Virus record (IMG/VR): IMGVR_UViG_3300044724_011066
Span: 1 to 28,302 of that record
Length of the DNA: 28,302 bases
Reading direction: 5' to 3' (one strand)
Source: a virus
Lineage: Duplodnaviria; Caudoviricetes
The notes under the pieces are model-generated. The model was not told the DNA's origin. It worked only from the letters and a program-made list of their open reading frames with translations, and did not search any database. This document shows positions 3,808 through 28,085 of this stretch, piece by piece. The position numbers and the translations under genes were made by a program. Each line of letters begins with the position of its first letter. Position 1 is the stretch's first letter.

Positions 3808-3813
3808 TGTTTT

Positions 3814-11133: not shown

Positions 11134-11147
11134 GAAAAGTACTACGT

Positions 11148-13640: not shown

Positions 13641-13659
13641 CTATCATACACCTCTTAAG

Positions 13660-13674: not shown

Positions 13675-14379
13675 TTAGATTTCTCCGTTGTCCCACTCGG
13701 CTCTTAGATTTCGATATTTTTTTCTTACTTTTGTTAGAGAAGAAGTTATTTGCTTTGTGCTAAAGCCGGTAATCTCCCGCAGATAAACATATACAGCTTT
13801 TTTGTTAAATATATCAATCTGTTCTACTGACTCAAATAAAACTTCGACTGCTTCTAAGATTTTTCTATCTTGAGCGCTGGATGTTTCTTCCTTCCACCAT
13901 ACTATTTCTTCGTGGAGCACCTCAATAAACTCTGCTTTTGTGCGATCTTGGATATAAGTGTTTCGAACGATAAGCTTTTCATCTAATACTGTATCAGAAA
14001 CATCCAAGGCAACTTCTTTTTGAAGCTTCTTTTTTCTTTTCTTGGTCTCGGCAATAAACCAGTTCTTTGTGATCACTGAAAAGTAAGTAAAGGCCTTATA
14101 GCCCTTTTCAACATCAAACTTTTCTAAGATTGTAACCAAAAAGACTTTGCAATCTTCTTTTAGAATATCGCAATTTGGAAGTGAGTTAAACTTATACGTA
14201 TAAACAATCTTATCAACCAACTCGTCAAAAGCAGGTTGGATTAGTGTTACGTATAACTCTTCTCTTCTAGCTTTTGATTTTGATTTACAGTACTCAAGAA
14301 TTGCGTCTTCGTGTACCTGCGTAAAATACATGTTTTTTTTCTTTGGATACTTGCTCTTCCTTCTCTTCTTCGTTGTCAT
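13675..14379 (-). CDS. Phage sigma-like factor, T4 gp55-like late transcription sigma
   Basis: 234 aa. KFDVEKGYKAFTYFSVITKNWFI resembles sigma region 2 of gp55-like proteins; C-terminal FNKKAVYVYLREITGFSTKQITSSL is HTH-like; SD GAGGAG 7 nt upstream of 14379. Confidence 0.72.
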   Translation of the reverse strand: MTTKKRRKSKYPKKKNMYFTQVHEDAILEYCKSKSKARREELYVTLIQPAFDELVDKIVYTYKFNSLPNCDILKEDCKVFLVTILEKFDVEKGYKAFTYFSVITKNWFIAETKKRKKKLQKEVALDVSDTVLDEKLIVRNTYIQDRTKAEFIEVLHEEIVWWKEETSSAQDRKILEAVEVLFESVEQIDIFNKKAVYVYLREITGFSTKQITSSLTKVRKKYRNLRAEWDNGEI

Positions 14380-14683
14380 CTATTTGCTCCTCTAGGGCAC
14401 CTGTAAGCTCTTCTTCCTCTAACCTGCTAAACAGGGTCGTAAAGTCTCCAACTCTCTCCGAGACGGCCTTTGAGTGCTCTAACAGGGCACGTAAGGTTTC
14501 ATCTCCATAAAAGGATTCAAGCTGGTATACTTGTTCGACGTGGCGATGATAAATGTTAAGGTCTGTAATCACTTCCTCGACCTCTAATGAAAGGTCTGAA
14601 AGGTCGGTTACAAGGCGGCGGCTATACCAAATTAGAATTACATTAAGTAATACCGAAACTATTATAATACCATAAATCATCAA
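14294..14683 (-). CDS. Hypothetical membrane-anchored protein
   Basis: 129 aa; N-terminal hydrophobic helix (IYGIIIVSVLLNVILIWY) followed by an acidic helical region; overlaps the sigma gene by 86 nt. Confidence 0.7.
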   Translation of the reverse strand: MMIYGIIIVSVLLNVILIWYSRRLVTDLSDLSLEVEEVITDLNIYHRHVEQVYQLESFYGDETLRALLEHSKAVSERVGDFTTLFSRLEEEELTGALEEQIDDNEEEKEEQVSKEKKHVFYAGTRRRNS

Positions 14684-14946
14684 TCCAACATCCTATTTGC
14701 TAAATTATCTTTTTCGTCTTGAAGAATCTTTCTGTTTTCTTCAATATAATCTTTTGTTAGTTCGCCGGTCTTTTTTGAAGTTTCTTCGGCGGTTCTTCGG
14801 ATACTAACAGTAGATAATCGTTTTGTTATTTCGCCTTTATCGGCGCAATCATACACTTCTGAGCAAGTGGTTGGGGTTTCATCGGACCCAACCATTGCCT
14901 TGAAGGATGAGCCACATTTTTTACATTCGTAAGCGTATATGGGCAT
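14680..14946 (-). CDS. FmdB-family zinc-ribbon protein
   Basis: MPIYAYECKKCG...CSEVYDC matches the MPxYxYxCxxCG FmdB-type start. Confidence 0.75.
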   Translation of the reverse strand: MPIYAYECKKCGSSFKAMVGSDETPTTCSEVYDCADKGEITKRLSTVSIRRTAEETSKKTGELTKDYIEENRKILQDEKDNLANRMLD

Positions 14947-14966
14947 TGTTTTCTCGTTTGTACAAC

Positions 14967-14995
14967 AAAAAAAGAGGGCAAATACCCTCTTTTTT
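14967..14995. terminator. Intrinsic (rho-independent) terminator, potentially bidirectional; on the minus strand it ends the glycosylation-locus transcript
   Basis: AAAAAAAGAGGG-CAAATA-CCCTCTTTTTT: perfect stem with a T-tract on both strands, 5 nt after the stop of the 64-aa gene. Confidence 0.85.
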
Positions 14996-15000
14996 CAGTC

Positions 15001-15195
15001 TTATTGTTCCTCTACTGCAGTCTCTTCTAGTTCTGAAAGGTCTCCGGATACGACAGGTGGGTTGATTACCACAAGCCCATCATCGGACATCTCAAAAACC
15101 ATATCGTTAAGAAGCGGCATAATATCTGCTTGCTCCCAAAGACATTTTTGTAGAACCATTAACAGGGCTCCGGCTGCTTGATTTGATAGTTGCAT
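15001..15195 (-). CDS. Small hypothetical protein
   Basis: 64 aa; strong SD AAGGAG upstream; followed by the terminator. Confidence 0.75.
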   Translation of the reverse strand: MQLSNQAAGALLMVLQKCLWEQADIMPLLNDMVFEMSDDGLVVINPPVVSGDLSELEETAVEEQ

Positions 15196-15215
15196 TAGTT
15201 TTCTCCTTTTTAAAT

Positions 15216-15791
15216 TTATTTACGAAAAATAGCAAATCCTTTTCCTTTTGATTCCCATCTTTCTATTTTAATATTATTTTTTTCTGCAAAATCATTAACA
15301 GCATTGTTAACAGAAAGAATTCTGGCGCCATTTGGTGGGCCAGACATATAGTCATCAACAATCATAATTCCTCCATTGTTAATTTTTGCATACACACGCT
15401 CAATATCTGAGTATGCGCCGGCGTAAGAGTGGTCTCCATCAATAAAAGCAAATTCTATGCCGTGAGGAAAATTATCATTAAAGAAGTCATCAGTTAAAAT
15501 TTTAGATGATGATCCTTCAATTAGTTTAAAGTTATTAAAATTTTCTTTTATCTTTTCTGAATGAAGTCGAGCGCCGGAAATATAATCTAAATTAATATCA
15601 ATACTTATTAATAGTTCAGGCTCCGCTGCATTTAATGTTGTTATAGCGCTTCGTCCGGAGGCAAACCCAGTTTCAATACAAAATTTAGGTTTTATTTCTT
15701 TTAAGATATTAATTAGAAAATCTCTTTGATCTTCATTTAAATGACCTTTGTGAAACCAAAGTTTATTAATGTTTTTTATTATTTCTTTCAT
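15216..15791 (-). CDS. Class I SAM-dependent methyltransferase (Methyltransf_24-like, probable sugar O-methyltransferase)
   Basis: IETGFASGRSA, ISIDIN, FAFIDGDHSYAGAYSD and GGIMIVDDY. Start moved from TTG 15827 to ATG 15791, which has SD AAGGAG. Confidence 0.82.
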   Translation of the reverse strand: MKEIIKNINKLWFHKGHLNEDQRDFLINILKEIKPKFCIETGFASGRSAITTLNAAEPELLISIDINLDYISGARLHSEKIKENFNNFKLIEGSSSKILTDDFFNDNFPHGIEFAFIDGDHSYAGAYSDIERVYAKINNGGIMIVDDYMSGPPNGARILSVNNAVNDFAEKNNIKIERWESKGKGFAIFRK

Positions 15792-15819
15792 AATTTTCTC
15801 CTTATTAAATAAATATACT

Positions 15820-16788
15820 TTATACAACTATTGAATAAAAATCTGCATCAAACATTAAGTTTGCTAGTTGTTTTAAGTTTGTTTTTGATTCCCAGCCAAG
15901 TCTCTCTTTTGCTTTTGTGGCATCGCCTAAAAGAAGAGGCACTTCGTGAGGTCTGAAAAGTCGCTCATCAATTTCTACATATTTTTCAACATCTAAGTTT
16001 GCACGCTCAAAAACATGATGTAGGAACTCTTTTACACTATATGTCTCGCCAGTTGCAACAACATAGTCATCTGGCTCTTCTTGTTGTAGCATAAGCCACA
16101 TTGCTTCAACATAGTCTTTTGCAAAACCCCAGTCTCTTTTTGCGTCTAAGTTTCCTAGATATAACTTACTTTGTAGTCCTTTTTTAATTCTTGCTGCAGC
16201 GAGAGTAATCTTTCTTGTTACGAAAGTCTCACCTCGGCGTGGTGATTCATGATTAAAAAGAATGCCACAAGAAGCATGAAGTCCATAAGACTCTCTGTAG
16301 TTGCGAACTAAGTTGTGGGCAAACACCTTAGCACAAGCATAAGGTGACGCCGGCATAAACTTCGTTTCTTCATTTTGTGGGTTTTCTGGGTTATCTCCGA
16401 ACATCTCTGAGGATGATGCTTGATAAAAACGAATAGTTGGATCGAAGTTTCTTATTGCCTCAAGCCAACGCAACGTACCCATTGCTACGGTTTCAACAGT
16501 TTCTTCTGGTACATCAAACGAAACCCTTACATGAGACTGTGCTCCAAGGTTATAAACTTCATCTGGTTCGTATTTCTTGAGCAAACGATAAAGAGCGCCA
16601 GAGTCGACGAAGTTATAATATTCCATATGGAAGTTTTTGTGGGCAAAACACTTTTCATCAATTCTAGATGTGCAAATAGAAGAGTTTCTTCGCTTTAGGC
16701 CAATGACTTTATAGTCCTTTTCAAGCAGAAACTCAGCAAGATAAGAGCCGTCCTGACCGGTTACTCCTGTTATGATTGCTGTTTTCAA
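15820..16788 (-). CDS. gmd: GDP-mannose 4,6-dehydratase
   Basis: [68 protein letters not shown] and [17 protein letters not shown]; TTG start coupled to the fcl stop. Confidence 0.97.
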
Positions 16789-17723
16789 TTAATGCCTCTA
16801 ATATTTGGATAAGTTTTTTTAAACCATTTACAAGTTTTTTTAATCCCTTCTTCTAAAGAAATATAGTCTTCTTGCTTCCAGCCTAGGCTTAAAAGTTTTT
16901 GATTTGAAGTGGGTTTTCTTACTTGCCCTTTTGGTTTTGTTTTATTATATATAATATTACCATTATAGTCAAGTTCTTTTTTAATTAAATTTATAATATC
17001 TTTTAAAAAATATTCTTTTGTATTTCCTATATTTATTGGTTCTTTTTTTGTATAATTTTCTAAACAAAATAAAATTGCTTTTGCAATATCTCCTGCATAA
17101 GAGAATTCCCTATATACTTTTCCGTCACCCCATACTTCAAAGTCAGGCTTGTTGTTTATTTTTGCTTCCCATATTTTTCTTATTAAAGCTGGAATAACAT
17201 GGCTATTTTCTAAATCAAAATTATCATTTTCGCCATAAAGGTTGTTTGGTATAACTGATATGTACTCTAAGCCATACTGTTTTCTAGCTGCTCTTAACTG
17301 AACATCAACCATTCTCTTGGCATAAGCATAACCAAAGTTTGAAGGGTGGGGTGGTCCAAGGTGAAGCTGTTCTTCTGTTAAAGGATATGAAACATAAGGC
17401 TGGTCTGGATAAATACATGTCGACAAGCAGCATACTAACTTTGGCACGCCGACCCAAACACACGTATCGATAACATTGTTGTTTATATTGGAGTTTTGTT
17501 GATAAAAATTAAACACATTTTCTGTATTTGTTTTTACACCGCCAACAAAAGCGGCTAGGTGTATTACCACATCAATGTTTTTTTTACCAATTTTTTCAAA
17601 ATATTGTTTAATGTTATTGTGACTAGACAGATCGAGCTGTTTCCTTGTGGGGTAAAGAGCGTTTGGTAATATTTTCTTAAAGGCGGATCCCAACAAGCCG
17701 TTACCGCCGGTTACAATAATCAT
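16785..17723 (-). CDS. fcl: GDP-L-fucose synthase family (GDP-4-keto-6-deoxymannose 3,5-epimerase/4-reductase)
   Basis: [58 protein letters not shown] and [11 protein letters not shown]; adjacent to gmd. Confidence 0.92.
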
Positions 17724-18106
17724 TTAATATTTTTTTTAATCATATCTTTAAACAAATTATAACTTCTTATGTAATTTTCTTCAGTATATTCTGAGTCTGC
17801 AAAAACTAAAAGTGTAGTTTGTTTTGTTTTAAATTCTAAATTTAACCAAACCATTTCTTTTTGATAAAAACAATCCCCTCTTTTCAGTATAAATGTACTT
17901 TTTCCGTTTTTATCCTCTGATTTTATTAACACTTCCCCGTCTAAGCAGATAAGAAAATGCTCTTCATTGACATGTGCGTGATTGCCTCTTTCACAATTTT
18001 CTTTTTTGCTTTTAACAACAAAAAATCTCTTAATTTTAAATGGAATTTCAAGCTTGTTGCAAGCTAAAAGAAAGCCTTCTAGATTTTCTTTAACAGAAAT
18101 CTGCAT
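17720..18106 (-). CDS. FdtA/QdtA (WxcM-like) cupin, dTDP-4-keto-6-deoxyhexose 3,4-ketoisomerase
   Basis: IPFKIKRFF, ERGNHAH, LLVFADSEYTEENYIRSY: the RGxHAH catalytic motif and typical C-terminus. Confidence 0.88.
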   Translation of the reverse strand: MQISVKENLEGFLLACNKLEIPFKIKRFFVVKSKKENCERGNHAHVNEEHFLICLDGEVLIKSEDKNGKSTFILKRGDCFYQKEMVWLNLEFKTKQTTLLVFADSEYTEENYIRSYNLFKDMIKKNIK

Positions 18107-19016
18107 AATTATTTACCTTATCGATAATATATTTAATTTCTTTATTTTTTAATTTTTCATGAAAAGGTATACTAATTGTTGTTTTTTCTTCTTTTTCAGA
18201 TTTTTCTAAAACTTTATCATTAACTTTGTATACTGAATTTAAATGACAAGCTGAATAATGTATACCAGTCTGAATACCTGCTTTATTGAGATAATTTATT
18301 AACATTTCTCTGTTGCTTACATTGATTCTATATAAATGGTTGCTTGTGTTTTCTAAATTAAAAGCAGAATTAAATTTATGTTTAATTGTTTCTAATTTTT
18401 TATTCTTTTTTTCTAGTTTTTTTAAATTTTCGTTAGCAATAAAACATTGAATAGAATTCATATACATTTTAAATCCAGGAAACTTAATTTTTCTTTCCCA
18501 GTTGTTTTTAGAATATGTCATTCCATTTAAACATGCTTCTTTTAACCATGTTATTTTTTCTAAATCATTTGAAACAATTATACCACCATCACAAGATCCA
18601 ATTGGTTTTGTTGGGTAGAAGCTAAATATCATTAAGTCATTATCATTTGCTTCCTTGATAAATTGATTTTTTTCAACTTTTTGGGCAGAATCTATTATTT
18701 TATAATCATCAAATTCATGAAGTATATATGAATCTCCTACCCAGCCAACATCATCAACAAAGTTAATTGAATTTCCGGAAGTTATTATTGCATTACAGAC
18801 AACTGGTGGTATGATTGATGGAATACTGATTGTAGTATTGTTATTTAAAAGTGAAAGAAAAATTGCATTTGTTGCACTACTAAAACTACAAGCGTATTTA
18901 GCGCCAACAAAATTACAAAAATTATTTTCAAATTCTTCTACAACAGTATCATGCAAAAAGTGATTAAAATTTTTAGTGTTAATTTTATAATTTGGTATGT
19001 TAAATAATTTAATCAT
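18090..19016 (-). CDS. DegT/DnrJ/EryC1/StrS family PLP-dependent sugar aminotransferase (FdtB/QdtB-like), compact
   Basis: VEEFENNFCNFVGAKYA..SSATNAI, IIDSAQ, FSFYPTKPIGSCDGGIIV, GIQTGIHY and ISIPFH. Confidence 0.9.
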   Translation of the reverse strand: MIKLFNIPNYKINTKNFNHFLHDTVVEEFENNFCNFVGAKYACSFSSATNAIFLSLLNNNTTISIPSIIPPVVCNAIITSGNSINFVDDVGWVGDSYILHEFDDYKIIDSAQKVEKNQFIKEANDNDLMIFSFYPTKPIGSCDGGIIVSNDLEKITWLKEACLNGMTYSKNNWERKIKFPGFKMYMNSIQCFIANENLKKLEKKNKKLETIKHKFNSAFNLENTSNHLYRINVSNREMLINYLNKAGIQTGIHYSACHLNSVYKVNDKVLEKSEKEEKTTISIPFHEKLKNKEIKYIIDKVNNYADFC

Positions 19017-19866
19017 AAGTTATAAAGTGTTTTATTATTTTTTTTGTTTCATATCCTTGAAAATGAATACAATTAAATCTTATTAGTTTACCTAAAAAAA
19101 GATTCTCTGAATATGGAAGTTTATTCTTCCAAATAAATTTTTTAATATTATTTTCAGTTTTAAACATGTTAGATTCATTAATATTGTGATCAAACACAGT
19201 CTCCCCATCCATACCGAATGTCGACAGTTCCCCAATCATAGTTGGTTCATCGTGGCTTCTTAAGATATTCCAAAATGTCATATCACAAACACCACCAGGT
19301 AAGTTATGTTGTAAGCGAATATTAAAATCATTAATAGTTTTTTTTGATATATAAGAAAAAGAAAACTTATTTTTAAATAATAAATTTTGTTGTGAGGGGC
19401 AGTAGAAGCCATCAACTAAGTTTAAATAATCATCAAAAACTTTTATATCAGTAATATATAAAATACCAGCTGATTTATTGCAAGTCAATGAATAACGAAA
19501 ATTATTAAATTTTTTTAATTCTTTATTTAACTTGCAATATATCAAAACATCAGAATCTAAATAAAATGTATTTTTTATTTCTTTTATTCTACAAAGATTT
19601 CTTATTAGAAACCATCTTAAAATACATATTTTTTCAAACTCAGCATTATTAGTACTATAATTTTTAAAATTATTTAAAAAATTATATGTTTGTTTGCAGT
19701 AAAGACTTTCCATTTCATAAAAATGCGTTAACTCTTTAGCTTGCTCTGGTACATTTTTTCCAATTAAATATACTTTTAAATCTGGATTGTGATGTAATAA
19801 CTGTTTGATTGAATGTGTTAAATAATCATCTTGACCTATGTGAAAATAAACTACTTCTTTTAGCAT
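19009..19866 (-). CDS. Putative glycosyltransferase (divergent GT-A / nucleotide-diphospho-sugar transferase fold)
   Basis: CILRWF, FYLDSDVLIY (DxD after a hydrophobic strand), CDMT and IHFQG; inside the sugar locus. Confidence 0.6.
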   Translation of the reverse strand: MLKEVVYFHIGQDDYLTHSIKQLLHHNPDLKVYLIGKNVPEQAKELTHFYEMESLYCKQTYNFLNNFKNYSTNNAEFEKICILRWFLIRNLCRIKEIKNTFYLDSDVLIYCKLNKELKKFNNFRYSLTCNKSAGILYITDIKVFDDYLNLVDGFYCPSQQNLLFKNKFSFSYISKKTINDFNIRLQHNLPGGVCDMTFWNILRSHDEPTMIGELSTFGMDGETVFDHNINESNMFKTENNIKKFIWKNKLPYSENLFLGKLIRFNCIHFQGYETKKIIKHFITYD

Positions 19867-20477
19867 TCTTTTTTACTCAATAAAAATGTTTTTTTAGTAT
19901 TATTATTTTTAAATGAATTAATATTTAAATTAATTTTAAAATTATTAAAAGTTATTAATTTTTCAAAATCACTAATATTAATAAATGTATTAATTGTTGT
20001 TAAGCCGCCATATGTTTTATAATCTCTTAAAAAAGAATTTTTTTCTGTCATATCTTGCCTATGAATAATAATAAATTTCTTTGCGTTTAATAAAATTTTA
20101 GATAATATAACATACCAATTTGGTACTTCACTTAAAAAACTATTCATGATAATAATATCATAATTTTTTAAAAAATCAAAACTATTTTCATTAGCATCAA
20201 AATAAAAATAATTATTTTGTGGATTTTTTATTTTTGCAACTTTATCAATAACGTGTGGTAAGTCGGCGCCGGTGTAATCATGATCACTCATTACTCTACC
20301 TAATTCCCCAGCACCACATCCTAAATCTAAAATGCTATATTTTTTACTTTCTATTTCAATTAACTTATTTAGACATTTTTTAAAACTTGAAAAGTGATCG
20401 CTGTCTTCAAGCTTGCCAAAATTTGAAGCAACCATTGCGTTCGTAATATTTTTTTTATTATACCAGGCTGTTTTCAT
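19860..20477 (-). CDS. Class I SAM-dependent methyltransferase
   Basis: SILDLGCGAG motif I, YTGAD and YDIIIMNSFL. Confidence 0.85.
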   Translation of the reverse strand: MKTAWYNKKNITNAMVASNFGKLEDSDHFSSFKKCLNKLIEIESKKYSILDLGCGAGELGRVMSDHDYTGADLPHVIDKVAKIKNPQNNYFYFDANENSFDFLKNYDIIIMNSFLSEVPNWYVILSKILLNAKKFIIIHRQDMTEKNSFLRDYKTYGGLTTINTFINISDFEKLITFNNFKINLNINSFKNNNTKKTFLLSKKEC

Positions 20478-21369
20478 GCTCTAACTCGTTATTTAGTCTT
20501 CTCGTTAATGATAATAGGTTTTTTTGTATTGCTTCTGGATGGATCCCCGCAAAAGGAGCAGTGAAACACTCCCCTCTAAATTGTTGTTTGAACTCATGTA
20601 CACCTAGATACTGTTTTTCAATTTGATATTTTTGCACCTCAGAGGCATTCATCCAAGGCAGGTATACTTGTTCAAAGTATCCATCGATGCATTTGTCACG
20701 AGAGACTTTTGCTTTATAATATTCTATTTTATTCTTTACTTGTTTTGGAAAAACATAAGAGTAATGATACATCTCAACACCTGTTTCTTTATAAAACACA
20801 TCACTATTAATATGCTTCTTTTGAATATCTTTAGGGTACTTTATTGTTGGCGGTCTATGTGTAAGCCAGGTACTCCCAGGTGTAACTTTGAATATTCTTA
20901 AAAAATTGTCTGTATTTAGTTCAAAGCCAGTTAGATAGTTATTAAACCCTCCATAAAAACTTTTACTTCTCACGCCAACACTAGTTGGATTGTTTTCTTT
21001 AAGGAAGTTTATTGTTTTTTCTATATCATTTTTTTTATAAACTTCATCGCTATCTAAATTCCAGACATAGTCTATATCTGAATTTAAATATTGCATGTAT
21101 GCATTACATTGTTCATCCTTTTCTGAAAACTGACCATGAGCAATTCTTATTTTATTTTCCGAATCTTCAAAATTATCGATAATTTCATTTGTTTTGTCAG
21201 TTGATGTTTTGCGTCCTTTATTCTGCCAAAAATCAACCGGCCCTTCTGATATCAGAATTTGACTAGCATAAGGGTATACTTGTTCTAGACACTCTTGCAG
21301 AACATAGTCCCCTTCAAAAACAATCATTCCAAAAGCAATTTTTAACATCCTACAAATCCTTTTAGGCAC
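20458..21369 (-). CDS. Putative GT2-like glycosyltransferase
   Basis: MIVFEG..L..CLE, ILISEG, STDKT, EKDEQCN and YVWNLDSDEVY; likely true start is ATG 21348 (MLKIAFG). Confidence 0.72.
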   Translation of the reverse strand: MPKRICRMLKIAFGMIVFEGDYVLQECLEQVYPYASQILISEGPVDFWQNKGRKTSTDKTNEIIDNFEDSENKIRIAHGQFSEKDEQCNAYMQYLNSDIDYVWNLDSDEVYKKNDIEKTINFLKENNPTSVGVRSKSFYGGFNNYLTGFELNTDNFLRIFKVTPGSTWLTHRPPTIKYPKDIQKKHINSDVFYKETGVEMYHYSYVFPKQVKNKIEYYKAKVSRDKCIDGYFEQVYLPWMNASEVQKYQIEKQYLGVHEFKQQFRGECFTAPFAGIHPEAIQKNLLSLTRRLNNELEHENSLV

Positions 21370-22223
21370 TGGAAATATTCATCTGCAATGTTTTGTATAA
21401 ACTTATTTGGCGCCACTTTAAAACCGTGCCTAGGGGCTAGTTCGTATGAACTGCCAACTATTTTAAAATTTGAAAAGTGACAATAAACTAATTCTTGTTC
21501 CATGTTGTTCCAAATTATTTTTTCTTTTTTATATTGATGAAAATTAAAATTCCATGGGGCCAGGTGGCCAATTGATTTATCTAAAACACTCACGCCTTTA
21601 AATAATTTTGAAAAAAGCTCTAAATACTTTTGATCTCCACAGGAGCTGTGTGTTTTATAGAATTGATGGTCTGTTGTTAGGAGGCAGTTTTTCCACCATG
21701 TGCAGCATTTGTATCCTTCAAAATTGTTTTTAAAATAAACTATACCAACATTATACCTGCCGTTAACGGGATTATACGGACATCGGTGTTCTACTATCCC
21801 AATATTAACTCCACTATTGTCAAGCTTGTCGTAAAGTGTGTTTAAATTTTTATAGAAATAAATATCTGCATCAATATATAAAATATCTTTTAAATTTAAA
21901 TTTTCTAAACACCACCAAGAAAAATAAGCTGATAAAGACCAAATAAATTGTAGTTTTTTTGCTTTATTTTGATCTCCACCACTATTAATTAATGCTTCTC
22001 GGGATGGTGGGTTGTTTTCGGACGCACGTAGTGTTTTATCTTTTTCTTTTAGTTCTTTAATATTATAGCAAATAATATTTTTATTATTAATTTTACTTGC
22101 TATAATATCATCTAAGCACAAAAGATGGATTTTAAAGTCTTCTCCAACTTTTGTTAAAGAAGACTCTAGGGCGCTCACTCTATCATAGAAATTACTATCT
22201 GCTACAGTACAAAAGTTTTTCAT
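21342..22223 (-). CDS. Putative glycosyltransferase (GT-A, GT8/nucleotide-diphospho-sugar transferase-like)
   Basis: FCTVADSNF, ILYIDADIYFY, YNVGIVYF, WWKNC, GDQKYLE, LAPWN and HFS. Confidence 0.75.
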   Translation of the reverse strand: MKNFCTVADSNFYDRVSALESSLTKVGEDFKIHLLCLDDIIASKINNKNIICYNIKELKEKDKTLRASENNPPSREALINSGGDQNKAKKLQFIWSLSAYFSWWCLENLNLKDILYIDADIYFYKNLNTLYDKLDNSGVNIGIVEHRCPYNPVNGRYNVGIVYFKNNFEGYKCCTWWKNCLLTTDHQFYKTHSSCGDQKYLELFSKLFKGVSVLDKSIGHLAPWNFNFHQYKKEKIIWNNMEQELVYCHFSNFKIVGSSYELAPRHGFKVAPNKFIQNIADEYFQCLKGFVGC

Positions 22224-23122
22224 TTTATAAATTTATGTAAATTATTTTTATTATTATATTTAAAATGAAAATTTGTTTCTAATAGCTTATTGAAATTTAT
22301 TGAGTATCTTATATCTTGGCCAAGCCTATTTGGTACAAAACTAATATTCTTTTGGTAATCTACAATATCAAACCAGCTTGAAACTATTTTTACAACTTCT
22401 AAATTAGTTAAATGGTTATTGGCGCCGATGTTAAATGTAGAATTTTTATAATCATTAACTATTAAATGGTATATTGCTTCAACATTATCTTTGACATTAA
22501 TCCAGTCCCTAATATAACTTCCATCACCATGTAATGGGATTTTTTTATTTTCTTTCAAACTTGAAATAATCTTTGGTATTAATTTTTCATTATATTGTCT
22601 TAACCCATAGTTATTTGAACTTCTAGTGATTAAGTAATCAATACCAAATGTTTTATTGTATGATAGAACAAACATTTCTGCGGCTGCTTTCGAAGCAGAG
22701 TAAGGGTTCCCTGGGTTTAAAACGCTGTCTTCTTTAAAACTTTCATCTCTAATGTCTCCATAGACCTCGTCTGTGCTTATCTGTACAAATAGTGGCCTTT
22801 CATAGACTTTTCCTCTTATTAGCTCAAGTAAATTAAAGACTCCCTTTGAGTTAGATTTAAAAAATTCTTTTGGAGACTCAATTGAATTATCAACGTGAGA
22901 TTCTGCTGCAAAATTGACCACCACGTCACAAGGTGGGAGGTGAGTTATGTTTGAGATATCTTCAACAATTAATTTATAATTTTTATTATTATCCCATGGC
23001 AATTCATCGAAAGCAGCATAGGTCATTTTGTCAATATCAATGACCTGGTGTCCGTTTTCTAGCAAAAGCTCAACAAAATGGCTGCCTATAAATCCACGAC
23101 CACCGGTTACAACAAATTTCAT
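22220..23122 (-). CDS. rfbB: dTDP-glucose 4,6-dehydratase
   Basis: VTGGRGFIGSHF, DKMTYAA, NFAAESHVDNSI, ISTDEVYGD, NPYSASKAA, TRSSNNYG.RQ..EKLIP and GDGSYIRDW. Confidence 0.93.
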   Translation of the reverse strand: MKFVVTGGRGFIGSHFVELLLENGHQVIDIDKMTYAAFDELPWDNNKNYKLIVEDISNITHLPPCDVVVNFAAESHVDNSIESPKEFFKSNSKGVFNLLELIRGKVYERPLFVQISTDEVYGDIRDESFKEDSVLNPGNPYSASKAAAEMFVLSYNKTFGIDYLITRSSNNYGLRQYNEKLIPKIISSLKENKKIPLHGDGSYIRDWINVKDNVEAIYHLIVNDYKNSTFNIGANNHLTNLEVVKIVSSWFDIVDYQKNISFVPNRLGQDIRYSINFNKLLETNFHFKYNNKNNLHKFIK

Positions 23123-25131
23123 TACATTTCCTCTAATAATTTTGCTTGATATTTTCTAAAAATCTTAAACTCTTCTTCTTGTTTCCAAGAATCATTGTCA
23201 GGATTTGTAGAGATTCCTTGCGGATTAAAATAATAAACTCCTAAAATGCTCGGAGTTTTAACAAATTTTTCTCCTTCAAAAGTACAACGAAGCCAAAACT
23301 CCCAGTCGCCGGCAGAACGATAAGAGTCATTAAAATTACCGTGTTTCTCATGTAAGCTGCTGCGCCACATTGGATTGTTGTGCGGTAAGTTCCCTCTTAA
23401 CATTGCTTCTTTTGAAAACTGTTCAAAATTATAGCGTTGGGTCTTATCTTTTATGTCTTCCCACATAACATTTGCCTCTTGAACTACATAAGAATCATTA
23501 TAAACTAATGATGCATCCGAATTCAATAAAAGCATTTTTGCTTGAATCTCTAAAGCATTAGGCGCTCGTCTGTCATCACAGTTCATATTGGTAATAAAAT
23601 CTCCAGAAGATAATTCTATTGCTTTATTCCAAACCCCGTATACTCCAGGATCTTCATCAAGTCTTTGATAGATGATGTTGTCTGGGTACCTTTCTACAAA
23701 CGCTTGGATTATTTCATGCTCCTTATCCCCTTCCGGATTAACGTTTATGATCACCCACTCACAGTTGGTATTGAAGATGGTCTGCCTAGTTACATCTTCC
23801 ATTAGTTGCTCGATATGATCTGCAGCGTTAAAGACAGAGGTTATAAGTGAGATCTTCGGAAGTGCACTAATGTCGATCTTTTCAAGTTCTTGTGTGACCT
23901 CATCGGTTAGGCTGAAATGACTCATGAAGTGGTCAAACACCTCTTCTTCGGCGGGCCATTCTTTTTCAAGCCATTCTGCCAGCTGGTTTGCTTTCTTTTG
24001 CATTGCGCCGTGATTCTCCATCATTGAGCGCATCTTCATCTTAAATGAGCCTTCCTTTGGAAAACACCACATAGAATCAGGAATGATAACTTTATCCCAT
24101 ACAACTTCTTTCTGGACATGGCGAAGTTCATAATCTACCTTAAGCGGAATGAACTTGTTTTTTCCCTTTACAGGCATCGTCAAGAAGTCGGTATGCCCTG
24201 ACCAAGCCGGTGCGATGATGGGAAGGCCTGCTTGTGCTGCCTCGAATAGCGGAAGCCCATAGCCCTCACCGTGAGTTGTTGTGATAAAGGCGTGAATGTC
24301 CTTGTGTCGATAAAGGAGCGCCATCTCCTCTTCTGTCATATAACCGTGAAGAAGATATACCTTACATTTCTTTTCTTTGTAATCTTCGTGATCTAGAAGT
24401 ACCTTGATCCTTTCAACACAATGAACCCGATCAATCTCGCAGTTCTTTGCTAGGTTGGTCTTTAGAACTAGGCCAACATTTTCACGATCAAAGTTTTCTT
24501 CGATAAACCACTTGACTAGGCTTTCTAGGTTCTTTCGTGGTCCCCATTGGGCAACTGAAAGAAAGTTAAAGTCTGTTTCGAAAGAGATTTGGTTTTCAAT
24601 TGATTCTGGGCTGTCTTTAAAGTCCCAATCTTTTCTTGGATAAGGAATAACTTCAATGGGTGTTTCGTTTTTGTAGCCCTTGACGATTTCTCCAGTTTGT
24701 TGGTTTTGTGCGTCATAAGAGGTTTCGTCAAAAGCATAACGAGCAAACTGAGATGGAACAATGATTTTATCCATCAAATTTGCCTTCTCAATCCATTCTC
24801 CCGCAATCTTTGTGGTTTCAATACCTGCGGTGACGCCAATGTTGATCGGGGCCATACGCTCCCATTCAAGAGGTATTGTGACCTGTATTGAGACGTCTGG
24901 CTGAGGCATTTGCTTTTGTTGCATTAGCATAGCTGTCTTTTGAATGAGTGAGTCAAGCCACGCTCGCTCCTCATCATCTTCAAAGATCCAGTTTGTCGCA
25001 CCCCAGCTGGTTGAAAGAAGGTAAAGATCTAGTTCTTCCTCTCTTGAACGAAGCGAGCGAAGAACCAAGCGTGTATGCTCTCCATAGCCTGATTGTGATA
25101 GCGCTGGGCCTCTAACTAATACCTTTTTCAT
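23122..25131 (-). CDS. Two-domain glycosyltransferase: N-terminal GT4 (GT-B) fused to C-terminal GT2 (GT-A)
   Basis: GT4 part: SGYG, RKNL and HGEGYGLPLFEAAQAGLPII. GT2 part from about residue 424: KISLITSVFN, GVYGVWNKAI..SSGDFITNMNCDD and AGDWEFWLR. Confidence 0.88.
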   Translation of the reverse strand: MKKVLVRGPALSQSGYGEHTRLVLRSLRSREEELDLYLLSTSWGATNWIFEDDEERAWLDSLIQKTAMLMQQKQMPQPDVSIQVTIPLEWERMAPINIGVTAGIETTKIAGEWIEKANLMDKIIVPSQFARYAFDETSYDAQNQQTGEIVKGYKNETPIEVIPYPRKDWDFKDSPESIENQISFETDFNFLSVAQWGPRKNLESLVKWFIEENFDRENVGLVLKTNLAKNCEIDRVHCVERIKVLLDHEDYKEKKCKVYLLHGYMTEEEMALLYRHKDIHAFITTTHGEGYGLPLFEAAQAGLPIIAPAWSGHTDFLTMPVKGKNKFIPLKVDYELRHVQKEVVWDKVIIPDSMWCFPKEGSFKMKMRSMMENHGAMQKKANQLAEWLEKEWPAEEEVFDHFMSHFSLTDEVTQELEKIDISALPKISLITSVFNAADHIEQLMEDVTRQTIFNTNCEWVIINVNPEGDKEHEIIQAFVERYPDNIIYQRLDEDPGVYGVWNKAIELSSGDFITNMNCDDRRAPNALEIQAKMLLLNSDASLVYNDSYVVQEANVMWEDIKDKTQRYNFEQFSKEAMLRGNLPHNNPMWRSSLHEKHGNFNDSYRSAGDWEFWLRCTFEGEKFVKTPSILGVYYFNPQGISTNPDNDSWKQEEEFKIFRKYQAKLLEEM

Positions 25132-26390
25132 ACTACCTCCTCAAATGTCCAAGTTGAATGATTTTTTCTGCTTTCCCAAGATCCATAACGATTATGAATG
25201 TCTTCTAGGAGTGTTGGCCATTTATCACAAAAGTCTTTAAAGTTATAGTTCTTTTGTACGTGCTCTCGACCAGCTTCACCAAGTGCTTTTCGTTCTTCTT
25301 CGGACATTTCCATAATCTTCGTGAGAGCCTCTATAAAGTCTTCCTTGTTGAGACGGTCCTCATAGATGTAAGGAATGTCTTGAGAGCCTATGATGGCCTT
25401 TGAGGACGGTTCTAGGCCTATTCCAAACCAGTTCTCGCCATCAGTTACTTGTTCTTGGAGCCCACCGGTCATATTTACAATGATTGGGGTTCCACAAGAA
25501 AGAGATTCAAGGGTTGCTAGGCCGAAACCTTCAGCATCTGAAATGTTGAGGGTGCAATCAACCATATTGTAAATGTTCGCAAGAATCTGCGGTGGATACT
25601 TTTGCTTTGAAAAGAATACTTGGCCATCTTCATGCATATCAAGCTTCTTTGCAATTGCTTCTAGATCTTGACCGTTTGGATCTTTTGGTTCTGTATGCAT
25701 GATAAGAGTTGCCTTGTCCTTTCCAACTCTTTCCAAAAACTCTTTAAACCAAAATAGTAGGGTACCTGACTGCTTTCGTCGTGCGTTTCGGTTGTTCCAA
25801 AAGAATACAAACTTTTCGTGGGACTCTCCTAGTTGTTCTTTCCTAAGATCTGATGTAGCTTCTGTTGGCATTGGCTTGAAGATGTCGCCATCAACTGCGT
25901 GTGGAACATAGTGAGATTCAACATCCGGCGCAACTTCTCGCACAATAGCATCTGTAACCTTTGAGATTGAACAAATAACATCATTTGAGTTATAGAACTT
26001 TTCATTATAATAGGGAGCTGGAAAGTTGTCCCATACGTGATAATAAACCATCGGCATTTGAGAGCGGATCTCGTCTTCTATTTCCCAAAGCCACCCAAAG
26101 AAACGTGGATCTGTCATAAACCACAAAAGGTCCGGTCGATGATTTCTCATAATCGACCGGACCACATCAGGTGTTCCAAACCCGTCAATCGGGTAAATAA
26201 CCCAATCATCGCCCCACTCCTCTGTTTTGATGGGGTCGTATTTTGGGTGTTTTATAGCACCACCAAGTGAAATAACTTGGAACTTTCCTGTTTTTAGAAG
26301 GGATTCTATTACATACTTTGTTTGAGTGCCAACACCAGACGGGGAAAGAGGCATGTCTGATATTGTTAGAATCTTAATCTTGTCTGTCAT
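25128..26390 (-). CDS. Glycosyltransferase family 4 (GT-B)
   Basis: ILTISD.P..PSGVG, HAVD..IFKP, NRNARRKQ and SDAEGFGLATLESLSCGTPII. Likely start is ATG 26390, directly after the nuclease stop (the track extends to 26426). Confidence 0.9.
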   Translation of the reverse strand: MTDKIKILTISDMPLSPSGVGTQTKYVIESLLKTGKFQVISLGGAIKHPKYDPIKTEEWGDDWVIYPIDGFGTPDVVRSIMRNHRPDLLWFMTDPRFFGWLWEIEDEIRSQMPMVYYHVWDNFPAPYYNEKFYNSNDVICSISKVTDAIVREVAPDVESHYVPHAVDGDIFKPMPTEATSDLRKEQLGESHEKFVFFWNNRNARRKQSGTLLFWFKEFLERVGKDKATLIMHTEPKDPNGQDLEAIAKKLDMHEDGQVFFSKQKYPPQILANIYNMVDCTLNISDAEGFGLATLESLSCGTPIIVNMTGGLQEQVTDGENWFGIGLEPSSKAIIGSQDIPYIYEDRLNKEDFIEALTKIMEMSEEERKALGEAGREHVQKNYNFKDFCDKWPTLLEDIHNRYGSWESRKNHSTWTFEEVV

Positions 26391-26391
26391 T

Positions 26392-27195
26392 TTACCTCGG
26401 GCAATGTTTTGTATGTTTGAATTCACAATAAGTGCAATTCATTCTATTCTTAAAGTATAACTGTTTGTGAATATTATAAACTGCTTTTTTTGTAAAGTCA
26501 AGAGCATTTTCAACTTTTTTTTGCCCTGAAGTGATTTTAAATATTTCTACCCTATTTTTCTTTGCTGTTCTTTTAAGAAGCGCAAAATGACATTCAACGT
26601 CTTTTAGTGGAATACCGTATTTCTTAGCATAAAAATACTTGTAAAGAACTAACTGGTAGTTTGTCATCTTGCTGCTTTTCTTTTCTGCTTTCCATCCCCA
26701 AGAACAAGTTTTGTAGTCTAGAATGTGAATCTTGCCATCTGAAGTCTTGATAATAAGATCGATAAAACCTTTGAAAGAAAAGTTATAATCAATGTCTAGA
26801 TCTTCTTTACAGTCTTCATAAAGAGAATATTCTACAGCAACTAACTCAAACTTGCCGAATTCGATGCGAAGGGCGGGTAAGATAAGCTCAACAAGATCTT
26901 CACCCTGTGCTTTCATCTGCTCTACGAGCATTTCATCGTATTCTACACCATCTTTTTGGAGTTGGTTGATTTGTTTTGTAAAATCTTTTTGGAAATAAGA
27001 AATAGGGTCTTCTATGTTCTCCAAAAGCAACTGTTCCGCTGTGTTGTGAACAGCGGAACCAAAAGCGGTATGGGCAGAGCCCTTGAAACCAGCAATGTCG
27101 TCGACGTATACTAGTTTGTGATACCAAGGGCATTTATGCCAATTGGAAAGTTCGGAAAAAGAAATATGTGGTTTATGTAGCTTCGGCTCGGTCAT
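26392..27195 (-). CDS. PD-(D/E)XK nuclease, RecB/AddB/Cas4-like, with probable Fe-S staple
   Basis: ISFSEL..W.KCPW, FGSAVH, VEY, KGFIDL and ILDYKT; C-terminal CTYC-x7-C plus the N-terminal Cys. Confidence 0.88.
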   Translation of the reverse strand: MTEPKLHKPHISFSELSNWHKCPWYHKLVYVDDIAGFKGSAHTAFGSAVHNTAEQLLLENIEDPISYFQKDFTKQINQLQKDGVEYDEMLVEQMKAQGEDLVELILPALRIEFGKFELVAVEYSLYEDCKEDLDIDYNFSFKGFIDLIIKTSDGKIHILDYKTCSWGWKAEKKSSKMTNYQLVLYKYFYAKKYGIPLKDVECHFALLKRTAKKNRVEIFKITSGQKKVENALDFTKKAVYNIHKQLYFKNRMNCTYCEFKHTKHCPR

Positions 27196-27823
27196 TTAGC
27201 TCCTTTATCTTGTTAAACGCCTCTGGTGAGATCTTAGCAGATGCGGAGGCGCTTGTCAAGTAAAAGTGCTCAAAAGCGTTGGCCCAGTATTCCCTGAGAG
27301 ATGTCGCCCCATACGGAGAGGCGAAGAGGCCTGGGGTTAGGATGTGTAAGATGTCGTAGCCAACAGTTTGATAAAGAAACTCATCCCATTCTGGGTCATA
27401 CTCAAACGGAACAGTTTTAAGGAACTTTTTTGGGATTCCTATTTGAGCTTGCTTTCCCATTAGACCGATTAGTTTTAAGTATTTTTCTTTATACTCTTGT
27501 TGGATCTTGCCGTCGCCATAGATAAAGCCAGTGAAGCGCTCTTCAAGAGAGTGCGCAACCTCGTGAACAATGTCGTCTAGAAAGTCCTGCTCGGAAGACT
27601 GTTCAGGCAAGACATAGATAGCGCCGTCAGCATAGGCAGCATTTAGCTCTCTTTCTCTAAGATCCTCAAACTCACCAACATAAATAACATCGATGCCTTG
27701 CATTAGAAAATAACCCGGTAAGGCTTTTTCTAATTTTTCCAAGGCTTGTTTAAAATCAAACCTAGTCTTTCCTTGTATAAAAACCTCAATTTGTCCGGCG
27801 TATAAAGTAAAAAAATTATTCAT
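27173..27823 (-). CDS. Zincin-like metallopeptidase-fold protein (HExxH)
   Basis: AAYADGAIYV, IVHEVAHSLE and a distal SPYGATSLREYWANAFE supplying the third-ligand Glu. Confidence 0.65.
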   Translation of the reverse strand: MNNFFTLYAGQIEVFIQGKTRFDFKQALEKLEKALPGYFLMQGIDVIYVGEFEDLRERELNAAYADGAIYVLPEQSSEQDFLDDIVHEVAHSLEERFTGFIYGDGKIQQEYKEKYLKLIGLMGKQAQIGIPKKFLKTVPFEYDPEWDEFLYQTVGYDILHILTPGLFASPYGATSLREYWANAFEHFYLTSASASAKISPEAFNKIKELNDRAEAT

Positions 27824-28085
27824 CGTCTTCAGCTTGCGGACCTAGATCGTCCATTGCTTGCTCATAGCCACGAATAAAGTTTTCCTCAGCAAGAGCAAAA
27901 ACAAGCTCTGGGAAGTGTGAAGCCAGTACATCAATAACCATCTCAACCGTAACATTGCCGGTTTCCGGTTGAAGTTCTTTTCCAACATAATCAACAACAA
28001 AAGTTTTTAGTTCGTTGTCGACTTGCACAACCTCATCAAGGTCAGGGTTGTGCATTGCTTCTTCCATTGTTTTTATCTTTTCCAT
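27816..28085 (-). CDS. Hypothetical acidic protein
   Basis: 89 aa; SD GAGGT upstream; coupled to the next gene. Confidence 0.75.
   Translation of the reverse strand: MEKIKTMEEAMHNPDLDEVVQVDNELKTFVVDYVGKELQPETGNVTVEMVIDVLASHFPELVFALAEENFIRGYEQAMDDLGPQAEDDE

Follow-up and report, generated by a model that had tools for sequence, protein, structure and literature searches.

A conserved glycosyltransferase pair and an exchangeable sugar cassette form a hypervariable, membrane-free island in a lineage of T4-like marine phages

The DNA analyzed here is a 28.3-kb viral contig (28,302 nucleotides; Duplodnaviria, Caudoviricetes; positions 1 to 28,302 of IMG/VR record IMGVR_UViG_3300044724_011066), hereafter called the window, and our subject is a glycosylation locus at its positions 15216-26426. 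All larger open reading frames (ORFs) of the window are on the minus strand according to the ORF listing, and the locus comprises 12 consecutive ORFs of this strand that stand back-to-back and mostly overlap. An earlier interpretation made from the letters alone (the sequence-only reading) had described 12 consecutive co-oriented genes in a phage context, including Gmd, Fcl, RmlB, FdtA, DegT, two methyltransferases and five glycosyltransferase (GT) genes with six GT domains. The gene order was borne out by the ORF listing, the gene families by Pfam and NCBIfam, and the number of GT domains holds as well, the fifth GT being assigned at the level of fold and an invariant DxD motif only. The phage context was corroborated by a late-sigma-like protein, gp25 and a baseplate-J/gp6-like protein encoded downstream of the locus (Pfam, PHROG). 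What the sequence-only reading missed is the two-part structure of the locus: a conserved head of two GT4 domains (core GT4 and GT4b) is followed by a swappable 8.7-kb cassette (approximately 15210-23935), an island architecture of which we are highly confident. Family assignments are based on Pfam and NCBIfam profile searches and also on PHROG, with PDB profile searches, AlphaFold2 (AF2) models and Foldseek for selected proteins, and genome-wide questions were examined in relatives of the window only.

The first gene of the locus encodes the core GT4 glycosyltransferase, assigned to the retaining enzymes of GT-B fold (25128-26426; PF00534, 53.5 bits). The sequence-only reading had placed the end of the locus at 26390; the ORF itself runs to 26426, but a true GT4 start near 26390 is probable, because homologues align from residue 13-16 onward and residues 1-13 are poorly modelled by AF2 (pLDDT, the per-residue confidence, below 50). 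The second gene encodes a 669-aa GT4+GT2 fusion (23122-25131). Its N-terminal part of approximately 400 aa is the second core domain, GT4b (23932-25131; PF00534, 29.0 bits), and its GT2 domain (23122-23931; PF00535, 48.7 bits, residues 428-578) is the first element of the variable cassette. The cassette continues with an RmlB-like NDP-hexose 4,6-dehydratase (22220-23122; TIGR01181, 290 bits, cutoff 365; also matched by PF16363 and PF01370), a GT8-family glycosyltransferase (21342-22223; PF01501, 25.5 bits, cutoff 24.3), a GT2-family glycosyltransferase (20458-21369; PF00535, 43.6 bits), and a class I S-adenosylmethionine (SAM)-dependent methyltransferase of the Methyltransf_23 family (19860-20477; PF13489, 33 bits), for which we infer a sugar N- or O-substrate. 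The GT8 and GT2 enzymes have homologues of 41% and 58% identity, respectively, in the cassette of one related locus, L035. Next come a candidate GT-A-fold, GT8-like glycosyltransferase of 285 aa, the fifth GT gene (19009-19866; DxD motif and fold), and a short DegT-type sugar aminotransferase of 308 aa (18090-19016; PF01041, 121 bits). The latter keeps an SFYPTK pyridoxal-phosphate lysine motif that aligns to 7b0d, and QdtB (3frk, E 1e-14) is among its best PDB matches. The locus is completed by an FdtA/QdtA-type cupin of the NDP-4-keto-6-deoxyhexose 3,4-ketoisomerase family (17720-18106; PF05523, 90.4 bits, passing the Pfam cutoff), an Fcl-like GDP-4-keto-6-deoxymannose epimerase/reductase (16785-17723; best NCBIfam match NF047922, 250 bits over the full length, cutoff 500), the GDP-mannose 4,6-dehydratase Gmd (15820-16788; TIGR01472, 459 bits, cutoff 415; PF16363, 429 bits), and a TylF/Methyltransf_24-type O-methyltransferase as the last cassette gene (15216-15827; PF13578, 49 bits; PF05711 TylF, 31 bits).

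The boundaries of the cassette are sharp. Nucleotide identity of the window to near-identical contigs is 90-97% from the window end to approximately 23933-23944, and resumes at approximately 15209-15212. The upstream boundary coincides with the GT4/GT2 domain boundary within the fusion gene, and the downstream boundary with the start of u64, a gene for a conserved 64-aa protein. Four backbones that are 90-97% identical in these flanks carry four different cassettes. The cassette of the window is an 8.7-kb gene set for fucose and an aminodideoxyhexose. In G001 and G002 the cassette is 15 kb long and encodes cytidylyltransferases, a PfkB kinase, a sugar C-methyltransferase, a radical-SAM/SPASM enzyme, WbqC, DegT, GNAT, a GT-D-like protein, and a UDP-GlcNAc 2-epimerase. 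That of G003 (locus L084) includes GT2, a FUT8/NodZ-like protein, a split transketolase, a short-chain dehydrogenase/reductase, and Gmd; that of L085 includes a Maf/MptE-like protein, a C-methyltransferase, a cupin, DegT, Gmd, a CMP-sugar-type cytidylyltransferase, and a HAD-nucleotidyltransferase fusion. The GC content of cassette genes (0.23-0.39) is lower than that of the conserved head (0.36-0.42), which fits lateral exchange.

The same picture holds for a wider set of 87 related loci (83 distinct records) that were surveyed by tblastn. Among them, homologues of cassette genes are patchily distributed: RmlB was found in 32 loci, Gmd in 19, DegT in 16, and Fcl in 12, and the FdtA, GT8, GT2, Methyltransf_23 and 285-aa proteins each in one, always L035. 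The far flank was reached in 10 loci, and the island measured from the GT4b start spans 2.0-9.4 kb there; of the 69 loci in which it was not reached, 58 have an island longer than approximately 10 kb. Clustering of the 684 island ORFs from 75 loci gave 280 protein clusters, 181 of them singletons. We scanned 150 cluster representatives (covering 551 of the 684 ORFs) with Pfam and found a broad toolkit. It comprises GT families 2, 4, 8, 9, 10, 11, 15, 17 and 29 plus CST-I; NeuB, CMP-sugar synthetases, 2-epimerases and transketolase-type enzymes; and modifying enzymes such as formyl-, carbamoyl-, sulfo- and acetyltransferases, FkbM and C-methyltransferases, and radical-SAM enzymes.

Among the findings that would refute its inference, the sequence-only reading had named a chimeric join of a bacterial locus to phage DNA. 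Such a misassembly of an O-antigen-type locus is favored by the GC content of most cassette genes (0.23-0.33, under that of the flanks) and by the fact that the window is a lone 28-kb contig. However, contigs from independent runs span both junctions, and therefore the join is not chimeric: junction 23935 is bridged by record 6 of run X11 (23207-24510, 1 mismatch) and junction 15210 by record 25 of run X8 (13885-15342, 4 mismatches), neither run being flagged as a source of the window. Moreover, the upstream junction lies inside an ORF that continues as the GT4+GT2 fusion, which is also present in four other loci; L035 holds a related cassette in the same slot, and 79 related loci carry an island there. 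The window cassette itself is present in 20 listed public runs from 12 studies. We regard an assembly artefact as practically negligible. Contig depths in runs X4, X6 and X11 are higher for the flanks than for the cassette; these are per-contig figures and were not used as evidence.

In contrast to the cassette, the head is conserved. The core GT4 was found in all 87 loci and GT4b in 85, and a nuclease gene directly precedes GT4 in 87 of 87. In IMG/VR, at least 80 loci have a GT4 orthologue at 57-68% identity, on contigs of up to 204 kb, and four further contigs carry GT4 at 92-99% identity. The core GT4 is intact in 46 of 46 orthologues checked; in-frame stops seen in four orthologues were rejected, as they are located upstream of the real start codon. 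Residues E299 and E307 of the EX7E motif are invariant in 43 core GT4 sequences, and H287-G-E289-G is invariant in 41 sequences of GT4b, thus both core GTs keep EX7E-type catalytic residues. The AF2 model of the core GT4 has a pLDDT of 88.5. GT4b is a standalone protein of 427-429 aa in G001, L084 and L085, and the full-length GT4+GT2 fusion was also found in L032, L036, L042 and L045. The order of nuclease, GT4, second GT4, and further GT and sugar genes is the same in two cultured phages, Flavobacterium phage immuto and Microcystis phage Mel-JY01, where the core GT4 has approximately 32% identity. Both the core GT4 and the baseplate protein have distant relatives at about 30% identity in Mel-JY01, immuto and an uncultured 484-kb phage, and Rhodothermus phage RM378 is a relative found via the core GT4. 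At the nucleotide level, 25 kb of the window gave no megablast match in the phage collection. In Mel-JY01 (L002) the core GT4 is annotated as two coding sequences of 573 and 909 nt, which may reflect a split gene or a sequencing error; these sequences and the SAM synthetase and C5-cytosine methylase genes described below lie within 7371-10855 and 12025-13516.

As the window is only part of a genome, the relative G001 served for genome-level analysis. It is 168.9 kb long, 93% complete according to CheckV, approximately 97% identical to the window in the flanks, and all of its 211 ORFs were annotated. Its structural genes encode a T4-like portal (gp20), terminase, gp23 capsid protein, prohead protease (gp21), sheath and baseplate. 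The replication and metabolic genes encode Pol III alpha, DnaB, RecA-like and gp32-like proteins, ThyX, dUTPase and a class II ribonucleotide reductase (RNR), and G001 also has three N6/N4-type DNA methylases, GroEL, ClpP, PhoH and a phosphomannomutase. No integrase was matched among the 211 ORFs, and thus the phage is probably lytic.

The glycan system is soluble and lacks export parts. We scanned proteins for membrane helices with 19-residue windows at a Kyte-Doolittle threshold of 1.6. No hydrophobic window was found in any of the 12 locus proteins, and of the 684 island ORFs of 75 loci, 650 lack hydrophobic segments and the remaining 34 contain just one, so that no multi-segment protein is among them. 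As a positive control, the same scan detected multi-segment proteins elsewhere in G001, where they are only a DUF5658 protein and a Gly/Ala-rich tape-measure-like protein. The latter, with five segments, lies among the tail genes and was rejected as a candidate transporter. Flippase, polymerase, ABC-2, Bac_transf, Glycos_transf_4 and GtrA families had no match in the 150 island representatives, and priming transferases (PF00953, PF02397) were absent from the window, the 211 G001 ORFs and the 150 representatives. Neither a GtrA family member nor a membrane protein was found in the locus by Pfam and hydropathy, no ligase in any of the 75 islands, and no export family among the 211 G001 ORFs, including the flippases that the sequence-only reading had proposed to look for elsewhere in the genome. 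Its statement that Wzx, Wzy, priming and Gtr components and transmembrane helices are missing therefore extends from the window to the 684 island ORFs and a 93%-complete relative. A 137-aa protein of L085 (10153-10566) matches PF14667 'Polysacc_synt_C' above the cutoff, but it is a hydrophilic cupin and not a flippase; the family name is linked to Wzx flippases, so that automated searches for export genes might be led astray by it. Non-priming GTs of O-antigen and lipooligosaccharide (LOS) synthesis are likewise peripheral and helix-free, so that the lack of a transmembrane helix in any GT is by itself a weak argument.

Profile and fold searches connected the two core GTs to a viral enzyme. 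The best PDB match of both core GT4 and GT4b is the chlorovirus NY-2A protein B736L (3oy2), by sequence profile at E 8.6e-15 over nearly the full length of core GT4 and at E 5e-9 for GT4b. By fold, Foldseek placed B736L ahead of MshA and BshA as a match of core GT4 (E 5.9e-20, TM-score 0.72/0.78, approximately 18% identity). BshA and MshA are the best cellular matches of core GT4 in NCBIfam, PDB profile and Foldseek searches, and its cellular structural relatives (MshA, BshA, sucrose-phosphate synthase, GlgM) act on small soluble acceptors. Both core GTs have borderline matches to PF20706 'GT4-conflict', and PADLOC matched none of the GTs. The Pfam families of T4 alpha- and beta-glucosyltransferases gave no match at E <= 0.01, and neither enzyme is among the Foldseek matches listed for core GT4. 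Judging by sequence, the core GT4 is without cellular orthologues: a scan of genome contigs returned 11 strong matches, all in phage contigs binned into metagenome-assembled genomes (MAGs) with scattered taxon labels, and otherwise short motif-level matches. Candidatus Pelagibacter is the label of the MAGs behind two of the 11 (L102 and L103), one of which is a contig of 116 kb, and these binning-based labels are a weak lead to a SAR11-like host. A partial homologue of core GT4 with 64% identity (residues 13-324) was found in L110, a MAG 'chromosome' labelled candidate division WOR-3 (CP070664.1, 1480594-1497526), and may represent phage DNA that entered the bin by misassembly or integration.

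The 285-aa protein had no match in Pfam, NCBIfam or PHROG, and its family consists of 57 homologue clusters, none of which carries a Pfam domain. Residues D104-x-D106 are invariant across a 39-sequence alignment of the family. The AF2 model is of high quality (pLDDT 95.9), and Foldseek matched it mainly to GT-A enzymes, mostly of GT8 type, with XXYLT1, GlyE, LARGE1, SetA, glycogenin and LgtC on top (E about 1e-5, TM-score about 0.47). Profile comparison did not reach across this distance: hhalign probability was 23% against the GT8 protein of the window and 2.7% against a Nucleotid_trans representative, and the family profile gave a chance match only against PDB. On the level of fold, we assign this previously unannotated family to GT-A, with the 285-aa protein as a candidate glycosyltransferase.

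The gene content makes a methylated glycan with a 6-deoxyhexose and an aminodideoxyhexose a fair prediction. The host would supply GDP-mannose and dTDP-glucose, because neither ManC nor RmlA was found in the locus by Pfam and NCBIfam. From these precursors, Gmd and Fcl would form GDP-L-fucose, though the product may instead be a related GDP-6-deoxyhexose, and RmlB, FdtA and DegT would form a dTDP-3-amino-3,6-dideoxyhexose. The amino sugar would stay free or become N-methylated, as the same searches found no N-acyltransferase in the locus. Using common sugar nucleotides of the host, the two core GT4s would attach a conserved base to the acceptor, the cassette GTs (the GT2 domain, GT8, GT2, and the GT-A-like 285-aa protein) would lengthen this base, and the O-methyltransferase would cap the glycan. 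The oligosaccharide would thus be built in the cytoplasm, and it would be strain-specific and serotype-like, under diversifying selection. A eukaryotic-type phosphomannomutase is encoded a few genes upstream of the island in G001 (L093:9757-10476) and could feed the GDP-mannose supply.

Our preferred reading, held tentatively, is that this hypervariable, membrane-free island of T4-like marine phages builds a methylated oligosaccharide on a phage-encoded acceptor. A virion protein is the acceptor we consider most probable, in itself a choice short of firm. The core GT4 pair stays with the phage backbone whether the host is Flavobacterium, Microcystis or Rhodothermus; an acceptor conserved to the same degree is expected, and a phage structure would suit this. 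Among solved structures, the closest to both core GTs is a GT of chloroviruses, which glycosylate their capsid with soluble enzymes of their own (PMC9614988), and sister cassettes contain weak MptE/Maf-like matches. Maf proteins are known to glycosylate flagellin. A precedent among large phages is the jumbo myovirus XacN1, which is described as encoding GTs and having at least two glycoproteins in its virion by proteomics (PMC5852040). Somewhat more speculatively, virions of this abundant lineage may wear a strain-specific glycan 'serotype', in which a base made by the conserved GT4 pair is elaborated by cassettes exchanged like O-antigen loci.

Several observations weigh against a virion acceptor. 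The 595-aa major capsid protein (MCP) of G001 has no Ser/Thr-rich C-terminal tail of the kind glycosylated in mycobacteriophages, and its structural proteins show no striking Ser/Thr tract; four G001 ORFs reach 55% Ser+Thr in a 20-aa window, none of them at the C-terminus. The island shares its operon with a nuclease gene and precedes the late-sigma gene, outside any structural module. In Mel-JY01 a C5-cytosine methylase and a SAM synthetase adjoin the island. The Fcl-like and RmlB-like proteins score below the curated equivalog cutoffs quoted above, which bears on the predicted sugars. The link to B736L is also less specific than it appears: in the sections of PMC9614988 that treat this protein, the acceptor of B736L itself is not established and the capsid glycans of NY-2A contain no mannose, and the T4 alpha- and beta-glucosyltransferases and the RB69 GT are described as matching 3OY2 by HHpred too (PMC6024577). 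DNA-modifying phage GT-B enzymes that act on 5-hydroxymethylcytosine (5hmC) are described as resembling BshA, MshA and PglH (10.1101/2023.12.21.572611), and comparable islands of pelagimyophages have been published as a means of host O-chain modification (PMC7029224).

This last interpretation, applied to our locus, is a serious rival, though in our judgment less probable than a virion acceptor. Soluble GTs would extend a lipid-linked glycan of the host at the cytoplasmic face, be it lipid A-core of the LOS type or an undecaprenyl-linked intermediate; the MsbA/Lpt, Wzx or ABC exporters of the host would carry the product out, and the altered surface would block superinfection or the loss of progeny on debris. 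The lack of export machinery is compatible with this reading, because an extended lipid A-core would leave the cell by the MsbA/Lpt route of the host, and the hydropathy scans are compatible as well, since helix-free GTs are generally expected there too. GT4, GT8 and GT2, together with GT9, GT10, GT11 and GT29 of sister cassettes, are families of LOS and O-antigen synthesis, and tail-fiber-like genes are swapped between the same near-identical phages. For the GT-rich islands of pelagimyophages and cyanomyophages, envelope remodelling is also the function proposed in print (PMC7029224). However, phages of Flavobacterium, Microcystis and Rhodothermus all keep the first two GTs along with their backbone. 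The envelope glycolipids of these three hosts differ, and a phage-encoded acceptor therefore fits the conserved pair better. The core GT4 is without cellular orthologues, none of the 75 islands has a priming transferase, ligase or flippase, and remodelling of the surface through new lipopolysaccharide (LPS) would presumably be slow relative to the cycle of a probably lytic phage.

The two other acceptors that we weighed are less probable than this. If the GTs built an oligosaccharide on a modified base of phage DNA, the phage would evade restriction, and the fold of core GT4 does not speak against such a role, because the 5hmC-acting GT-B enzymes share its resemblance to BshA and MshA. In the same account, approximately 65% of about 25,000 contigs with such GTs have no neighboring primer enzyme (10.1101/2023.12.21.572611). 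The island adjoins a nuclease, the core GTs have their borderline 'GT4-conflict' matches, and in Mel-JY01 the SAM synthetase and an unannotated C5-cytosine methylase (PF00145, 129 bits) are encoded just upstream of this nuclease. The primers of DNA hypermodification, which the sequence-only reading had proposed to seek elsewhere in the genome, were searched for in five records, namely G001, G002, G003, the complete genome of Mel-JY01, and immuto. The ThyA-family hydroxymethylase or 5-hydroxycytosine synthase (PF00303) is absent from the first four and present in immuto only, where it is annotated as an ordinary ThyA beside RNR genes; Tet_JBP (PF12851) was found in none of the five, and the C5-methylase (PF00145) in Mel-JY01 only. 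The 93%-complete G001 thus lacks all three; it has ThyX, dUTPase and the N6/N4-type methylases. None of the GTs matches the T4 alpha- or beta-glucosyltransferase families of Pfam at the threshold given above. Known DNA glycans are mono- to trisaccharides in the accounts available (10.1101/2023.12.21.572611; PMC13326640), a range exceeded by six GT domains with methylation and amino sugars, and the nonulosonic-acid, sulfotransferase and carbamoyltransferase genes of sister cassettes go far beyond it. We consider DNA as the acceptor quite improbable. Hardly more credible is some other soluble target, such as a non-virion protein of phage or host, a small molecule, or a free oligosaccharide within the infected cell; the glycan could then serve as decoy or compatible solute, or modify a host defense protein. 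Such a role would agree with the small soluble acceptors of the cellular relatives of core GT4, with the borderline 'GT4-conflict' matches, and with the acidic u64, which is co-transcribed at the 3' end of the island and stands between sugar genes in G001 and L084. Against it, replacement of whole cassettes at strain level points to selection on an exposed and recognized structure, no GT was matched by PADLOC, and no particular target is singled out.

GT-rich hypervariable islands in marine T4-like phages and virus-encoded virion glycans are both already in print, and our locus shares features with each. The 'host recognition cluster' of pelagimyophages and cyanomyophages is described as a hypervariable island rich in GT and LPS genes (Zaragoza-Solas et al. 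2020, PMC7029224). As here, it occupies a fixed slot in marine T4-like myophages, with a non-syntenic content of GT and deoxy-sugar genes and a function that is inferred only. The pelagimyophages belong to another lineage, whereas the nearest cultured relatives of the present phage are immuto, Mel-JY01 and RM378 (approximately 30% identity); their slot is between VrlC and gp14, with tail fibers, whereas ours is between the nuclease and a block of u64, Zn-ribbon and late-sigma genes; and the conserved two-GT4 head is a feature of the present island. The 'moraphage' paper (PMC12619734) describes four core GT groups, and in the portion available to us one Rhodothermus phage in a tree is the only cultured relative of this lineage that is named. 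Our literature search, which covered main texts and not supplements, found no paper on the island of this lineage.

Among viruses of eukaryotes, the chloroviruses offer soluble viral GTs and methyltransferases that work without cellular export (A064R, A546L and B736L; the N-glycans of PBCV-1 Vp54), with methylated glycans of fucose and rhamnose type (PMC9614988). Unlike our phage, they infect eukaryotic algae, and attachment to the capsid has been shown there by experiment, whereas here it is predicted from the genes. In mimiviruses (Megavirinae), clade-specific clusters for bacterial-type rare sugars are described as setting the composition of the virion surface fibrils (PMC9614988). These clusters vary between clades, whereas whole cassettes vary here between phages of 90-97% identity, and capsid type and host domain also differ. 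O-glycosylation in mycobacteriophages, as covered in PMC12619734, is alike in that phage-encoded soluble GTs would modify the phage's own capsid and tail proteins. In that account the glycans are at the C-termini of capsid and tail-tube proteins, unlike the MCP of G001 with its lack of a Ser/Thr-rich tail. No mycobacteriophage is among the 13 phage records matching core GT4. Glycosylation gene sets of mycobacteriophages are also much smaller.

Phage clusters for DNA glycosylation likewise encode GT-A and GT-B enzymes related to those of LPS and teichoic-acid synthesis, sometimes with extra GTs and epimerases (10.1101/2023.12.21.572611; PMC13326640). In contrast to our locus, they are described as needing a ThyA homologue or a C5-methylase plus TET, neither of which is in G001; the 5-hydroxycytosine arabinosylation system, for instance, starts from enzymes of these classes (Lee et al. 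2026, PMC13326640). Bacterial O-antigen, LOS and capsule loci resemble the island in their low-GC cassettes of nucleotide-sugar and GT genes of the same enzyme families, swapped between near-identical backbones with serotype-like diversity as the outcome. Unlike them, the island is part of a lytic-type phage genome and has no priming transferase, flippase, polymerase, ABC transporter or ligase. It differs from GtrABC serotype conversion by the absence of a GtrA match and of any membrane protein in the locus, and of an integrase in G001.

Compared with this earlier work, the present analysis adds clearly defined cassette boundaries, one of them at a domain junction within a GT fusion gene; four cassettes on four near-identical backbones, with bridging contigs at both junctions; explicit negatives for DNA primers in a near-complete relative and a link of both core GTs to chlorovirus B736L; and the fold-level assignment of an unannotated GT-A family. 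If the glycan is on the virion, the surface diversity of these phages would be comparable to bacterial serotypes, with effects on adsorption, aggregation, recognition by host defense or grazers, and on the counting of viral 'strains' in metagenomes. If a strain-specific virion 'serotype' is true, glycan coats of such diversity would be a strategy that phages share with giant viruses, and phage-host, phage-grazer or phage-defense interactions at sea would have a hidden axis. If the acceptor is host lipid A-core instead, the island would represent serotype conversion by a lytic phage that needs no export genes of its own. Either acceptor would answer a question that has stood since 'LPS genes' were first seen in marine T4-like phages, and with immuto and Mel-JY01 as cultured carriers of the conserved GT4 pair, this question is open to direct testing. 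The cassettes also represent a large reservoir of soluble rare-sugar enzymes.

The genes that flank the island on its 5' side are conserved as well. The operon is headed by u89, a small ORF (27816-28085, minus strand) that was found in 72 of 87 loci, always upstream of u216, and has no family match. The phage-only protein u216 (27173-27823, minus strand) is present in 80 of 87 loci. In the atlas, its neighboring clusters contain phage proteins only, and one of them hints faintly at Peptidase_M90, in 11% of its members; its Pfam match to ATLF (E 0.0068) is below the cutoff. The next gene encodes the PD-(D/E)XK nuclease (26392-27195, minus strand), which is Cas4/RecB-like (PF12705, 79.6 bits; phrog_69 exonuclease; Cas4-like by PADLOC).

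On the 3' side, the acidic 64-aa protein u64 (15001-15195, minus strand) has a ribosome-binding site and an ATG 20 nt past the methyltransferase stop. It is 94-97% identical in L084 and was matched in 10 of 87 loci; in most of the others the 10-kb flank stops short of it. The 54-nt gap after u64 contains a palindromic A6-stem-T6 hairpin (14968-14995), likely a two-way terminator. The sequence-only reading had ended the locus at a terminator; the hairpin exists, but it lies beyond the 64-aa ORF and not at 15216. The hairpin was not found downstream of u64 in eight other related loci checked. Terminator-like sites in the region number 11, against a shuffle mean of 9.1, and the counts of promoter-like sites are likewise no higher than in shuffles. 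The T4 late-promoter motif TATAAATA has 2 matches against 3.5 expected, both on the non-coding strand and none on the gene strand.

A second small variable slot is located between u64 and the Zn-ribbon gene, where the window has only the hairpin (14947-15000). In this slot G001 has a 138-aa cytidylyltransferase (45215-45631; L092:7215-7631), and L084 has an ORF with a cupin-like N-terminus (approximately 15113-15846). Within the cassette, one contig of run X4 joins 15206 to 15832 and skips 625 nt, exactly the O-methyltransferase gene; with 29 nt on the shorter side, it is a weak hint of a presence/absence variant of this single gene. Further downstream, the tail-fiber-like genes of the window (1863, 299 and 830 aa; 2085-10828 and 11133-13650) have no megablast-level match in G001, whereas the baseplate and sigma regions around them are 92-97% identical. 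Judging by this pattern, they are further hypervariable slots, probably for receptor-binding proteins, that are swapped among the same near-identical phages. The backbone of G001 also encodes a homologue of ribosomal protein S21, IMPDH and adenylosuccinate synthetase. Finally, G001 has two tandem arrays of paralogous ORFs of 120-168 aa (92404-95005 and 100064-102314; L094:16404-19005 and L095:5064-7314), which are mostly 120 or 143 aa long and some of which have sub-threshold DUF6745 matches.

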